Shown: positions 10,244 to 15,648 of the stretch, in pieces
How the letters are laid out: every line of letters begins with the position of its first letter
Position numbering within the stretch: position 1 is the stretch's first letter
Source of the DNA: an uncultured Candidatus Saccharibacteria bacterium
Lineage (GTDB): Bacteria > Patescibacteriota > Minisyncoccia > Phycocordibacterales > UBA9973
DNA length: 64,000 bases
Assembly (NCBI GenBank): GCA_964426555.1
Contig: CAYRQJ010000001.1
Location: forward strand, 894 to 64,893
Reading direction: 5' to 3'
The notes under the pieces: model-generated
What the model was told of the DNA's origin: nothing
The model's input: only the letters and a program-made list of their open reading frames with translations
The model's database searches: none
Position numbers and translations under genes: made by a program

Positions 10244-10246
10244 TTA

Positions 10247-10272
10247 TTATCCTCATAAATTCTTCATAATCA
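10247..10272 (+). promoter_or_regulatory. Direct-repeat box CTCATAA-attc-TTCATAA upstream of the response regulator operon
   Basis: Two heptamers with 11-bp periodicity ~15 bp upstream of a TATAAT -10 (10277-10282). Same box recurs upstream of three other operons. Confidence 0.4.
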
Positions 10273-10290
10273 AAGTATAATGTAGTTTAT

Positions 10291-10962
10291 ATGAGAATTT
10301 TAATCGTCGAGGATCAAATAAAACTGGCAAATTCAATCAAGAAAGGTCTTGAAAATATTGGCTATGCAGTCGATATGGCTCATGATGGAGCAACAGGGCT
10401 TCGTAAGATACAAGCAAGTCCTGAGAACTTTGATTTAATCATACTTGATATTATGCTCCCTGAACTTGATGGTATAAGTCTTTGTAAAAAAATACGCAGT
10501 GAACATATCATGACCCCTGTACTCATGCTCACCGCAAAAGACACACTCGATGATAAGATAGACGGACTTGATGTTGGGGCAGATGATTATCTTGTAAAAC
10601 CATTTGAATTTGATGAATTAACGGCACGGATGAGAGCACTGTTACGTCGTCCAAAAGTAGCACTTGAAACAAACTTAACTGGTGCAGGTATTAGTCTGAA
10701 TACTGTTAGTCATAATGTAGATAAAAAAGGTAAAGAAATTAAACTCACGGTAAAAGAATTTGCGATCTTAGAATATTTCTTAAGGAATAAAAATAAAGTA
10801 CTCAATAGATATCAAATCATTAGCCATGTCTGGGACTTTGAATACGACACATTTAGCAACATCGTTGATGTGCATATTAAAAACTTGAGAAAGAAGTTAC
10901 AAGGTAAAAATGAAGATATATTTGAGACTATTCACGGTGTTGGCTATAGGTTTAATGACTGA
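10291..10962 (+). CDS. OmpR/PhoB-family response regulator (receiver + winged helix)
   Basis: DLIILDIMLPELDG receiver with phospho-Asp. C-terminal winged-helix (VHIKNLRKKL...GVGYRF). Confidence 0.85.
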   Translation: MRILIVEDQIKLANSIKKGLENIGYAVDMAHDGATGLRKIQASPENFDLIILDIMLPELDGISLCKKIRSEHIMTPVLMLTAKDTLDDKIDGLDVGADDYLVKPFEFDELTARMRALLRRPKVALETNLTGAGISLNTVSHNVDKKGKEIKLTVKEFAILEYFLRNKNKVLNRYQIISHVWDFEYDTFSNIVDVHIKNLRKKLQGKNEDIFETIHGVGYRFND

Positions 10963-10964
10963 TT

Positions 10965-11933
10965 ATGAAAAATAATATATTTAAAAAAGCTCGAATAAAA
11001 CTCACGCTATATTACATAGGAATTATGGCAGTTATTTTACTTGCTTTTAGTAGTGTTCTTATATTTACAATCGAATCAAAAATACGAGAAGGATTCAGGG
11101 ATAGAATTACAATAATTGAATCTGAAGGAGATCCAGCTAAAAATGCAAGTGACGAGATAGAGCTTATTATCTATGTAGTCGATGGATTATTGCTTGTAAT
11201 TATAGGTTTTTCAAGTTATTTTCTTGCAGGTAAAACTCTTAAACCAATTAAAGAAGCACTTGATTCTCAAAAGAAGTTTTCAGCAGATGCTTCACATGAT
11301 CTTCGTACACCTCTTGCAATTGTAATGACAGAATCAGAAGTTGCACTACAAAATAAAAATCCAAAAGTAGAGGAACTTCAATTTATAATAGGAAGCAATC
11401 TAGAAGAAGCAAAAAAGATGGCAAAGTTAGTAAATGATTTATTACTAATTTCTCGTGGCGAACAAGAAAACACTCTAAATAATTATATTACCACAGACCT
11501 ATACTCTTTTGCTGAAAAAGTAGTACAGAAATTTATAAGACAAGCAAAAGACAAAAACATTGTTCTTGAAATTTCAGAGTATAAAAAAGCAGATATTCTT
11601 CTTGAGCCAAATACTTTTGAACGGGCTATTTCAAATATACTTCAAAATGCAATTAATTATACAAAGCAAGGCAAGATAAAGGTTGAAATTAAAGAAGATG
11701 CAAAAAATATTATCCTCTCTATATCAGATACTGGAGTGGGCATATCAAGCGCTGATCTACCATTTATATTCAATAGATTTTATAAAGCGGAGCATTCAAG
11801 AAATGATAAATCAGGATCAGGCCTCGGACTATCAATTGCCAAACAAATTATCAATAAACATAAAGGTGATATTGTTGTCGAAAGTAGTGCTGGTAATGGG
11901 ACTACCGTAACGATAAAAGTGCCAAAAGTATAA
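10965..11933 (+). CDS. Sensor histidine kinase (2 TM, HisKA + HATPase)
   Basis: H-box SHDLRTPL, N-box QNAINYT, G-boxes DTGVGI / GSGLGLSI. Confidence 0.8.
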   Translation: MKNNIFKKARIKLTLYYIGIMAVILLAFSSVLIFTIESKIREGFRDRITIIESEGDPAKNASDEIELIIYVVDGLLLVIIGFSSYFLAGKTLKPIKEALDSQKKFSADASHDLRTPLAIVMTESEVALQNKNPKVEELQFIIGSNLEEAKKMAKLVNDLLLISRGEQENTLNNYITTDLYSFAEKVVQKFIRQAKDKNIVLEISEYKKADILLEPNTFERAISNILQNAINYTKQGKIKVEIKEDAKNIILSISDTGVGISSADLPFIFNRFYKAEHSRNDKSGSGLGLSIAKQIINKHKGDIVVESSAGNGTTVTIKVPKV

Positions 11934-11935
11934 AT

Positions 11936-12643
11936 ATGAAGCAAATACAAAATAATGTTTCATACTTTATTGAAAAACTAAAAAATGACTCGTTGTTCAG
12001 AAAAAATTTAGTAAAAACTATAGTAGTAACCGGGCTATTCTTTTGGTTGTTATTCTATATTGGATCAGAAGTAAAAGAAGCTAACTTCATAACTCAATCA
12101 AAAATACAACACTTCATTTTACAGTATGGCTATTTTTCTTGGCTAGTTTACGTTGCTGTATTGTTGATAACAATTATGTCTCCGTTACCTGATACTCCAG
12201 TAGTGCTAGCGGGCGGGTTTATTTTTGGTCCTTATGTAGCAATTCCTCTTACTATTATTGGACAAATACTCGGTGCTACTGTTGATTTTTATTTAGCACG
12301 CAGACTTGGAAGGTCATATGTAACAAAAAGATTTCCAAAAGCAACAAAAACTCTCAACGAGTATAGTCATAAACTTGGCTGGCAGACGGTATTTATGATG
12401 CGACTTACACCAACTCTTTCTTTTGATATTTTAAGCTATGCAGCAGGTCTCTCGAACATATCATACAAGCAATACATTATTGCTACAGCTTCAGGTATGA
12501 TACCACTTCTAGTCGTTAGTAGTTTACTTGGCTACAGTGCAGGACTACATTCAAAAATACTACCGATACTGATTGTATCTATTGGTGTGATCGTGACAAT
12601 GAGTATATTTTTCCTCTTTAAAAAATACACAAAAAATAAGTAA
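11936..12643 (+). CDS. DedA/TVP38 (SNARE-associated) family membrane protein
   Basis: GGFIFGPYVAIPLTIIGQILGATVDFYLARRLGR signature. Co-operonic with RR-HK. Confidence 0.7.
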   Translation: MKQIQNNVSYFIEKLKNDSLFRKNLVKTIVVTGLFFWLLFYIGSEVKEANFITQSKIQHFILQYGYFSWLVYVAVLLITIMSPLPDTPVVLAGGFIFGPYVAIPLTIIGQILGATVDFYLARRLGRSYVTKRFPKATKTLNEYSHKLGWQTVFMMRLTPTLSFDILSYAAGLSNISYKQYIIATASGMIPLLVVSSLLGYSAGLHSKILPILIVSIGVIVTMSIFFLFKKYTKNK

Positions 12644-14287: not shown

Positions 14288-14340
14288 ATTTTTATATTAA
14301 CATCTTGTTTTGATTTAAAACATATAGAGAATTATATAGT

Positions 14341-14363
14341 TCATAATTTCCTCATAACTTTAT
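14341..14363 (+). promoter_or_regulatory. Direct-repeat box TTCATAA-tttc-CTCATAA upstream of membrane-protein paralog A
   Basis: 27-nt stretch tatagttcataatttcctcataacttt is identical to the one at 15606-15632. Confidence 0.45.
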
Positions 14364-14379
14364 TTTATGATGTAAGCAT

Positions 14380-15144
14380 ATGACACAAGCAACAAAAGAT
14401 TTACTTATAAAAGTTCCTGCCGTAACGCTTGGTTTTTGGATTATAAAAATACTCTGTACAACACTCGGCGAGACTGGTGGAGATGCAGTATCTATGACAT
14501 GGAACCTTGGGTATCTAGTAAGTACAGGGATATTTATAGTTATTCTTATAGGGCTCATTGTTGCTCAAGTAAAATCTAAATTATATAAACCATGGCTCTA
14601 TTGGGCAACTATCATTGCTTCTACGACAGCAGGGACGACACTTGCAGACTTTGCAGATAGATCGCTCGGTGTCGGGTATACTGGTGGGTCATTAATTCTT
14701 TTAACATTTCTACTTGCTACATTATTTATTTGGAAAAAAAGTACTGGAACAATTTCTGTAGATAGCATTTCAAATGCAAAAAGTGAAGTATTTTATTGGA
14801 CTGCAATTACTTTCTCCCAAACTCTCGGTACTGCTCTCGGAGATTGGTTTGCAGATACGAATGGCCTTGGATATCTTCACTCTGCTTTTGTTTTTGGAAC
14901 ATTACTTTTAATTATTACGCTACTCTATTTTAGAACTAAAGTTTCGAAAGTATTATTGTTCTGGGGAGCATTTATTCTTACAAGACCGCTTGGAGCTGTT
15001 GTCGGGGATTTCCTAGATAAACCATTTGCAAAAGGAGGTCTTAATATTTCAAGACCAATGATTTCACTAATTCTTCTCGTAGCGATAGTTATCTTAATTG
15101 CAGTAATTCCTCAAAAAGCAGGTGAACACCCTAAAAATGCTTAA
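14380..15144 (+). CDS. Polytopic membrane protein with four internal TM + LGxxxGD repeats (paralog A)
   Basis: Repeated CTTLGETGGD / TTAGTTLADFAD / SQTLGTALGDWFAD / TRPLGAVVGDFLD units. Paralog of 15649-16422. Confidence 0.6.
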   Translation: MTQATKDLLIKVPAVTLGFWIIKILCTTLGETGGDAVSMTWNLGYLVSTGIFIVILIGLIVAQVKSKLYKPWLYWATIIASTTAGTTLADFADRSLGVGYTGGSLILLTFLLATLFIWKKSTGTISVDSISNAKSEVFYWTAITFSQTLGTALGDWFADTNGLGYLHSAFVFGTLLLIITLLYFRTKVSKVLLFWGAFILTRPLGAVVGDFLDKPFAKGGLNISRPMISLILLVAIVILIAVIPQKAGEHPKNA

Positions 15145-15616
15145 TTTCCAAATCCTCATCTCACAAATATCAGGAACAGCAGTAATGTTTAGTGTTTTAG
15201 GAATCCTTTGTGTAATTCTTTATGTACTCAAATACAAAAAAGACTTTCTTAAAATTATCTTTGCGAGTACTTCTGCCATGTTCGTAACATATACTCTCAA
15301 ATATATTCTTAAGATTCCTCGCCCAGAACATATGCTCGTTATAGAAACAGACCCTCGTTTCCCATCAGGTCACGCCACGATGGCAGCAGTTGTAATGACA
15401 TTAATTATTTCTTACTCAAATAAACATATCAAGAATAATTATTTGAAATACTTCCTGTGGATAGTAGCAGTTGGTTGGTTTATGTTAGTGAGTTATTCAA
15501 GATTATATCTTCATGTTCATTATCCGATTGATATCATTGCAGGAGGTCTCATCGGGATTGTTTCCACTATGGTGGTCTCAAAAATCTTTAATCATTTGCA
15601 CTATTATAGTTCATAA
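15122..15616 (+). CDS. PAP2-family (type 2 phosphatidic acid phosphatase-like) membrane phosphatase
   Basis: KIPRPEH, PSGHA, SRLYLHVHYPIDII motifs. The true start may lie a few codons inside the listed ORF. Confidence 0.7.
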   Translation: MNTLKMLNFQILISQISGTAVMFSVLGILCVILYVLKYKKDFLKIIFASTSAMFVTYTLKYILKIPRPEHMLVIETDPRFPSGHATMAAVVMTLIISYSNKHIKNNYLKYFLWIVAVGWFMLVSYSRLYLHVHYPIDIIAGGLIGIVSTMVVSKIFNHLHYYSS

Positions 15617-15633
15617 TTTCCTCATAACTTTTA
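15611..15633 (+). promoter_or_regulatory. Direct-repeat box TTCATAA-tttc-CTCATAA upstream of membrane-protein paralog B
   Basis: Identical 27-nt copy of the box at 14337-14363. Confidence 0.45.
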
Positions 15634-15648
15634 TATATACTTTTTGAT

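Follow-up and report, generated by a model that had tools for sequence, protein, structure and literature searches.

A candidate direct-repeat operator for an OmpR-family two-component system with PepSY and DUF347 genes in an uncultured Patescibacteria-like bacterium

The closest known systems to the locus described here are the two-component systems (TCSs) linked to PepSY proteins, such as BqsRS and DbfQRS. The locus lies in a stretch of 64,000 nucleotides (hereafter the window) of contig CAYRQJ010000001.1, from an uncultured Candidatus Saccharibacteria bacterium, in which an 18-bp box, with the consensus TTCATAA-TTTC-YTCATAA and two head-to-tail half-sites 11 bp apart, stands upstream of four operons. 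The first of these, on the plus strand at 10291-12643, consists of three genes that abut or nearly so: an OmpR-family response regulator (RR; 10291-10962; Pfam Response_reg 1.1e-28, Trans_reg_C 5.5e-26), a histidine kinase of 322 aa (HK; 10965-11933) and a DedA/VTT membrane protein (11936-12643), their identities, like those of the other genes below, resting on Pfam and NCBIfam searches of the window proteins. Judged from the sequence, it is very likely that the box is the operator of this adjacent OmpR/PhoB-family RR.

In Pseudomonas aeruginosa, BqsR binds TTAAG-N6-TTAAG over the -35 and switches on an operon with PepSY genes among its members (PMC4358008, PMC12714742), and BqsS senses Fe(II) by means of a periplasmic RExxE motif (PMC4358008). 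BqsRS (CarRS) resembles the present system in its OmpR-family RR, in a tandem operator with an 11-bp period over the -35, and in an autoregulated operon with small PepSY proteins, and it responds to extracytoplasmic cations (PMC4358008; PMC12714742). However, the half-site is TTAAG there and YTCATAA here; the kinase of the window, read by eye from its translation, has two transmembrane (TM) segments with an outer loop of about 30 aa and no RExxE, nor has it a linker of HAMP length between TM2 and HisKA; and BqsR/CarR is no particularly close relative of the window RR, which matches the receiver domain 8gc6 (BqsR/CarR) with an E-value of 1.4e-26, against 1e-52 for DrrD. A keyword search of PMC4358008 found no DUF347 target, DUF347 being the membrane family encoded in two of the four operons described here.

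DbfQRS of Vibrio cholerae is positively autoregulated, its PepSY protein modulates the kinase, and such modules are widespread (PMC12714742). Here too a small secreted PepSY-only protein is encoded beside the RR/HK pair, two genes after the HK and so within the few genes that mark a PepSY-linked TCS module, an arrangement with like cases in L087, L014, L028, L036, L065 and L218 (numbers with L denote loci recovered in our searches). In DbfQRS, however, the PepSY gene heads the TCS operon and its product binds a periplasmic sensor domain (PMC12714742), whereas here it lies downstream of the TCS with a boxed promoter of its own, and the kinase is almost without an outer domain. A keyword search of the DbfQRS paper (PMC12714742) found no binding site or direct repeat.

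A further comparison is offered by PhoB and the pho box. Two 7-bp direct repeats with 4 bp between them in place of the -35, together with a recognition helix of the DVHI..LRK type, are common to both systems; the pho box half-site is CTGTCAT, at about 10 bp from the -10, whereas here it is TTCATAA, at 6-8 bp, the RR scores 188 against the PhoB NCBIfam cut-off of 296, and the gene content is unrelated to phosphate. Among the named NCBIfam families, the best-scoring for both proteins are RppA/RppB (RppAB being NrsRS) and the heavy-metal, CusRS-type families, all of them below their cut-offs: the RR reaches 236.7 against 250 for the RppA equivalog, a near miss, 223.9 against 279.2 for TIGR01387 and 201.6 against 420 for the CusR equivalog, and the HK reaches 200.7 against 400 for the RppB equivalog and 185.6 against 292.55 for TIGR01386. 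The module also adjoins CsoR-CopA-cupredoxin genes, in keeping with the heavy-metal systems (CusRS/CopRS/SilRS; RppAB), but its kinase lacks a large periplasmic metal-sensor domain. The published CusR box is palindrome-like, and not a direct repeat of the present kind.

The box, with the sequence-level features of an OmpR/PhoB-family operator, is predicted to be bound and to work like a pho box or a BqsR box, but it is not fileable as a BqsR, CusR, PhoB or RppA site, because its half-site differs from those of BqsR (PMC4358008), PhoB and CusR, because the family cut-offs are missed, and because the HK is without the large outer sensor domain of heavy-metal kinases and without the RExxE of BqsS. 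The literature was searched for operators of the TTCATAA type and for the sites of HssR, YclJ and the CopR of Synechocystis, and the present half-site was not recovered. TTCATA-like half-sites are used by HssR (GTTCATATT repeats), TorR (CTGTTCATAT) and Bacillus subtilis YclJ.

The box and its promoters

The preliminary description of this DNA had pointed to four direct-repeat sites, and all four are present, three as exact matches and one degenerate. Exact matches to YTCATAA-N4-YTCATAA number three in the window, against 0.02 +/- 0.14 expected from dinucleotide shuffles, so that the motif is here well in excess of chance; and a search of the window, both strands included, gives four matches to the core YTCAT-N6-YTCAT, against 1.03 expected, these four being exactly the sites in question and nothing else, all on the plus strand and inside 5.4 kb. 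In a position-matrix scan of the window the four boxes score 20-25 bits, and the runner-up, within a coding region, 14.5 bits.

Box 1 (CTCATAA-ATTC-TTCATAA, 10252-10269) is an exact match and the putative autoregulatory site of the RR-HK-DedA operon. Box 2 (TTCATTA-TTTC-CTCATAG, 12649-12666), the degenerate one, belongs to the promoter of the PepSY and Lys-rich genes and starts 6 nt past the DedA stop codon, about 17 nt to the left of the position at which it had been placed (12666-12690). Boxes 3 (14340-14357) and 4 (15610-15627), both TTCATAA-TTTC-CTCATAA and both exact matches, belong to the promoters of DUF347a-PAP2 and DUF347b-orf107, respectively, and the PAP2 stop codon falls inside the first heptamer of box 4. 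The 27-mer TATAGTTCATAATTTCCTCATAACTTT is identical upstream of the two DUF347 genes, as had been said of these paralogous membrane-protein genes. At all four sites the heptamers are in direct orientation with their starts 11 bp apart, as in OmpR/PhoB operators, and a set of 17 sites gives the consensus TTCATAA-TTTC-TTCATAA.

DedA belongs to the regulator operon, a correction to what had been said before, and boxed promoters precede RR-HK-DedA, PepSY and both DUF347 genes; no box was found upstream of the Lys-rich gene (32-nt gap), PAP2 or the acidic, PT-rich orf107 (44-nt gap), and these are therefore best read as co-transcribed second genes of the boxed operons, which would be their only route into the regulon.

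A TAnnnT -10 follows the end of the box by 6-8 nt at all four promoters, and the box occupies the place expected of the -35. In the RR promoter the -10 is TATAAT (10276-10281), 6 nt after box 1 and 9 nt before the ATG, without a TGn; in the PepSY promoter it is TATAGT (12675-12680), 8 nt after box 2 and about 80 nt from the ATG; in the DUF347a promoter, TATGAT (14366-14371), 8 nt after box 3 and 8 nt before the ATG; and in the DUF347b promoter, TATACT (15636-15641), 8 nt after box 4 and 7 nt before the ATG. A scan for canonical -35/-10 pairs called none of the four box promoters, which agrees with the earlier placing of the box at the -35 position ahead of a plausible -10. Because the ATG comes only 7-9 nt after the -10 in three of them, the RR, DUF347a and DUF347b transcripts are probably leaderless, their 5' ends lying on the ATG or only a few bases from it; the PepSY transcript, unlike these, would have a leader of about 70 nt. 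The transcription starts so predicted lie close to or at 10288-10291 (RR), 12687-12688 (PepSY), 14378-14380 (DUF347a) and 15648-15649 (DUF347b).

Elsewhere in the window there are many genes in which TGnTAnnnT ends 6-9 nt ahead of the ATG and a Shine-Dalgarno sequence is lacking, for example those at 13634 (minus), 19568, 20752, 26300 (minus), 35550 (minus), 42391 (minus), 44386 (minus) and 58884. This ending is found in 11 of the 37 other upstream regions, including that of the box-less CAAX gene, which points to leaderless promoters with an extended -10 as a widespread housekeeping design in this genome. The TGn is missing in 14 of the 16 box promoters of the window and its relatives and, as these have no -35 and mostly no TGn, they look like weak promoters in need of an activator.

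The mechanism that we propose would follow these features. The small membrane HK would phosphorylate the RR, whose dimer would bind the half-sites head to tail, at about -38 to -20, over the missing -35, and would recruit RNA polymerase to the four weak promoters by class II activation, as do PhoB and BqsR. The units so activated would be its own RR-HK-DedA operon, in positive feedback, the PepSY and Lys-rich genes, DUF347a-PAP2, and DUF347b with the acidic membrane-anchored protein. From the sequence features above, we hold it likely that phosphorylated-RR dimers bind the box and activate all four promoters, their own included; and if the box is indeed the operator of the adjacent RR, its promoter context makes activation very likely.

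The same position could equally serve repression, in which the adjacent RR would occlude the -35 and spacer and a signal would bring de-repression, since the box reaches into the core promoter, to within 6-8 nt of the -10, and some OmpR-family regulators repress from such places. We regard this as unlikely: the box promoters, without a -35 and mostly without the TGn that other promoters of this genome use, look activator-dependent; head-to-tail sites in place of the -35 are the classical activating arrangement, as in PhoB and in BqsR (PMC4358008); and the PepSY-linked DbfQRS is reported to activate its own genes (PMC12714742). Activation is thus preferred, because of these promoters and because the PepSY-linked relatives BqsR and DbfQRS activate.

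Exactly where the PepSY mRNA is predicted to begin there is a small hairpin (ATTCATA-N7-TATGAAT, 12688-12708, plus strand) with a 7-bp stem and a 7-nt loop, whose arms carry box half-site sequence. It folds in all four orthologous leaders (window, L087, L092 and L216), at the same distance from the -10, and its outer pair changes from A-T to C-G in L092, although the free energy is weak, at about -3.5 to -8 kcal/mol. It could be an mRNA stabiliser or an extra regulator site. As for the arms forming an inverted operator of fixed geometry, the gap between TTCAT and ATGAA is 9, 9 and 6 nt in three genomes, which a hairpin fits better than a protein dimer site; a leader peptide was likewise discarded, as the short open reading frame (ORF), 12 codons long in the window but only 4 codons in L092, is not conserved.

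The candidate regulator and the box in relatives

Within the window, a domain scan finds the RR at 10291 to be the sole protein with an OmpR-type DNA-binding domain, so the claim that no other such regulator lies nearby holds for these 64 kb. A second receiver (20309-20683) has no output domain; it is the partner of a second kinase (at 19568, 238 aa), in which only the HisKA and HATPase_c domains were found.

The relatives used for comparison are contigs carrying homologues of DUF347a, obtained by a protein homologue search, in which the nearest named relative is a Candidatus Nomurabacteria metagenome-assembled genome, so that a member of the Patescibacteria (CPR, Candidate Phyla Radiation) is the probable source. 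In the closest, L087/L088, the module has 77-79% DNA identity with the window and keeps all four boxes, and the nucleotide similarity between the window and L087 starts at 10249, only 3 nt ahead of box 1. Over the four promoter pairs of window and L087 the box is 94% identical and the segment between box and -10 86%, against 49% for the 20 nt upstream of the box and 60% for the 10 nt past the -10; conservation of the box upstream of orthologous genes, which had been set as a check, is therefore found, with diverged flanks. Box 3 agrees with its L087 equivalent in 17 of 18 bases and box 4 in 18 of 18, equivalents of box 2 occur in L087, L092 and L216, and an ABC transporter inserted after DedA in L087 has a box of its own (TTCATAA-TTTA-CTCATAT).

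In more distant contigs, where DUF347 is 68-84% identical to that of the window, the box stands upstream of DUF347 (L089, L092, L213, L215, L216), of DedA (L092), of small secreted proteins (L092, L216), of MscL (L216) and of a Cyt-b5 gene (L089). It also stands upstream of the RR gene in five CPR loci, namely the window, L087/L088, L092, L215 and L216, that of L092 being counted after its gene start was corrected to ATGAAGGTT. The Lys-rich protein is conserved in L087, L092, L213 and L216. In the two loci where DUF347 has no TCS close by, L090 and L214, no box stands upstream of it.

An independent scan, its matrix derived solely from the four boxes of the window, was run over 123 kb of related Patescibacteria-like contigs. 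In it 13 matches reached 14 bits or more, where Markov shuffles gave 2.0 +/- 1.5. Of the best nine, seven lie 20-23 nt before the ATG of a long ORF (DUF347, DedA or response-regulator genes), the same spacing as separates the box from the ATG of RR, DUF347a and DUF347b in the window.

These comparisons also bear on the idea that the boxes are copied or duplicated promoter DNA (by way of the DUF347 paralogues or of cassette shuffling), or a chance product of AT-rich sequence, with no dedicated binding protein. The 27-mer common to the two DUF347 promoters, a genome of 35% G+C and the ease with which an 18-mer of this kind is met by chance in metagenomes would all speak for it; but at the protein level DUF347a and DUF347b share no more than about 40% identity, so that a recent duplication cannot give a match of 27 in 27, the box precedes non-homologous genes (RR, PepSY, ABC, DedA, MscL), and its conservation far exceeds that of its flanks, as its counts in the window exceed those of shuffles. 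We consider this explanation barely credible.

Outside the close relatives, a metagenome scan for the exact 18-mer TTCATAATTTCYTCATAA gave at least 120 stretches. Among the matches listed, six loci have any RR match, three of them with an adjacent OmpR-type RR/HK (L099, L107 and L109), and no CPR DUF347 locus was recovered. In L109 and L099 one box stands beside the OmpR-type RR gene and a second, strong one immediately follows the stop codon of the HK, ahead of a small secreted protein that is Gly/His/Tyr-rich in L109 and Gly/Met/His-rich in L099; in L107 the box closely follows the HK and precedes a protein that, by eye only, looks PepSY-like at its C-terminus. The box thus travels with OmpR-type RR/HK genes in unrelated contigs found by its sequence alone. 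The RR of L109, at an overall identity of only 35%, has the recognition-helix string DVHIKNLRKK in common with the window RR.

A scan of genomes by DUF347 alignment returned only distant relatives, 56-67% identical and from many phyla, with no close CPR relatives. An OmpR-type RR/HK is present in about 18 of 80 loci; in roughly 10 of these it is immediately adjacent, and PepSY and PAP2 often accompany it. In Methylobacterium the repeats CTCATTC-TGTC-CTCATTC (L014) and CTCATTC-TGCC-CTCATTA (L046) precede PepSY or DUF347, beside RR-HK; on the conjugative plasmid pBbPL7HG1 of Bradyrhizobium betae, CTCATTT-TGTC-CTCAGTC separates the kinase from PepSY-DUF347, and an undecaprenyl-diphosphatase is encoded close by; and in Ignavibacteria TTTCATC-TTCT-TTTCATC lies upstream of the RR gene. 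The YTCAT-type repeats of Alphaproteobacteria and Ignavibacteria share the 11-bp period, as do the CCTAAGT repeats that replace YTCAT in the betaproteobacterial L056/L079, the only loci in which that type was seen, with an RR closest to BasR/PmrA. The common denominators across loci are the box and the OmpR-type RR/HK pair.

Several observations weigh against the adjacent RR as the activator acting at the box. Most of the metagenome 18-mer matches look like chance coding sequence (...YEEIMN... on the reverse strand), with no TCS gene nearby, for which reason the exact 18-mer alone is not diagnostic outside a promoter context; the RR promoters of L215 and L216 do have a TGn; the RR gene of L213 has no convincing box; and the recognition helix DVHIKNLRKK of the RRs of the window and L109 is widespread in the family and so is no proof of specificity. 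Furthermore, L089 has two good boxes and no TCS within its 16.8 kb, and the 64 kb seen here leave room for another OmpR-family regulator, encoded outside the window, to bind the box, its proximity to the TCS being then coincidental. That such a regulator is responsible seems quite improbable, since box and OmpR-type RR/HK occur together in the window, L087/88, L092, L213, L215, L216, L099, L107, L109, L014, L046 and L218, in very different gene contexts, and since the box stands directly upstream of the RR gene itself in the five CPR loci.

The genes under the box and their surroundings

The second operon (12761-13581, plus strand) encodes a secreted PepSY protein of 160 aa with an N-terminal hydrophobic, signal-like segment (12761-13243) and the Lys-rich secreted protein (13276-13581). 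It is followed by an inverted repeat of 17 nt, perfect and flanked by A/T runs (13599-13639), which probably terminates transcription both of the PepSY operon and of the convergent gene of a CAAX/Rce1-like (Abi-type) membrane protein (13634-14287, minus strand). The third operon (14380-15616, plus strand) comprises DUF347a (14380-15144) and a PAP2 phosphatase (15137-15616, alternative start 15122), whose likely start, read from the sequence, is the ATG at 15137 overlapping the DUF347a stop codon (ATGCTTAA); the gene call of the L087 PAP2 begins at the equivalent ATG. The fourth (15649-16790, plus strand) comprises DUF347b (15649-16422) and orf107, an acidic, PT-rich membrane-anchored protein (16467-16790). 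The N-terminal membrane anchor of orf107 is common to the DUF305 protein at the same position in L087 (12107-12574), where a DUF305 domain takes the place of the acidic, PT-rich tail.

An acidic motif, approximately D-x-K-D-x-x-G-(N/K)-D-x-E-T-(N/K)-D-D, occurs twice in the PepSY protein (12905-12960 and 13181-13236), once in the Lys-rich protein (13444-13499) and once in orf107 (16676-16705), and is also present in small secreted proteins of L092; it may be a cation-binding motif common to the secreted proteins of the regulon.

As for the signal, a kinase with almost no outer domain may sense the membrane or a partner protein, and the candidates for such a partner are PepSY, DUF347, DedA and the CAAX/Abi-like protein. 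The gene of this last is kept inside the module in L087/L088, without a box and with a -10 of the constitutive TGn type. In Staphylococcus aureus, the Abi-domain protein SpdC is reported to control histidine-kinase activity (PMC5854430), and by analogy the CAAX/Rce1-like protein could be a partner of the kinase.

DUF347 is unusually conserved, at 56-67% identity from the window to Proteobacteria, Actinomycetota, Verrucomicrobia and Cyanobacteria, and the "a" and "b" paralogues co-occur in several phyla. A model of the protein has eight TM helices as four 2-TM repeats, each with one invariant membrane-embedded Asp, and no solved structure has a closely related fold.

An apparent mobile island (204-17116) carries the module; the island starts with a ResIII helicase (204-2507, minus strand) and an N6/N4 DNA methylase (2512-4200, minus strand), continues on the plus strand with a large serine recombinase (4874-6190), a CsoR-type repressor (6233-6508), a CopA-type P-type ATPase (6510-8798), an HMA-DsbD_2 protein (8803-9816) and a cupredoxin (ending at 10243), and closes, past the module, with two tRNA-Ser genes (16937-17116, minus strand). 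In L087 (12639-18958) the recombinase, ParB, ResIII and methylase stand on the opposite side of the module, from which it follows that parts of the island have been rearranged or circularly permuted. The G+C content is 38.8% in 4500-10250, against about 34% in the rest of the window and 35% in the genome. Directly past orf107 and ahead of the tRNA-Ser genes lie two perfectly inverted copies of a 24-nt sequence, only 5 nt apart (16804-16856), which could form a terminator or an island boundary or recombination site. Past the tRNAs, at 17444-21156, there follow more genes with a link to metals or signalling, namely a ZIP-family metal transporter and an ATP-grasp protein (both minus strand), the kinase with the receiver-only RR, and a weakly DUF305-like protein, without a box. 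An Rfam scan found no known RNA family in 10-17 kb and only tRNAs and a tmRNA elsewhere; ARAGORN gives a tRNA-Ile with anticodon TAT at 25826-25900 and, for one of the two tRNA-Ser, the anticodon ACT, both of them unusual.

Metal defence and the wider meaning of the module

The surroundings of the module suggest, by analogy, a cation or metal/envelope stress response as the role of the regulon, because copper genes and CsoR adjoin it, because the nearest RR and HK families are heavy-metal ones, because each repeat of DUF347 has its invariant Asp within the membrane, because a DUF305 gene ends the L087 module, and because in Frankia operons of DUF347 and undecaprenyl-phosphatase are reported to be Pb-induced and have been proposed to be a metal export/precipitation system (PMC4531530). 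The pairing of DUF347 with a lipid phosphatase is common to both cases, but the Frankia paper gives no regulator or operator, and the DUF347 function is there a hypothesis (PMC4531530).

Taking together the recombinase-bearing island beside copper-resistance genes and the related modules on conjugative plasmids, the module may be a transferable stress-defence cassette. In a wider and quite tentative form, which we hold to be possible but doubtful, there would be an ancient, horizontally mobile regulon composed of an OmpR-type TCS, PepSY, DUF347 and a PAP2 or undecaprenyl phosphatase, with YTCAT-N6-YTCAT kept from Patescibacteria-like bacteria to Alphaproteobacteria and Ignavibacteria, in which DUF347 would be an unrecognised cation transporter or a co-sensor of the kinase, acting with the phosphatase in the defence against metal or cation stress.

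The mechanism itself would be a textbook one, but little is understood of the gene set it would control (PepSY, DUF347, PAP2), which different phyla have conserved. For Patescibacteria-like bacteria, which cannot be grown alone, hardly any regulons are defined; here the candidate operator, the promoter architecture, with no -35 and probably leaderless transcripts, and the predicted set of targets can all be read from the sequence, and one purified protein would suffice for a test in vitro. DUF347, a membrane family with about 60% identity across phyla and no known function, is tied by this locus to a TCS, to PepSY proteins and to a lipid phosphatase, and a predicted inducible promoter together with candidate signals (metals, cations) would offer a handle on what it does. 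The association of TCS, PepSY, DUF347 and PAP2, and with it the YTCAT repeat, recurs across phyla and on mobile DNA.

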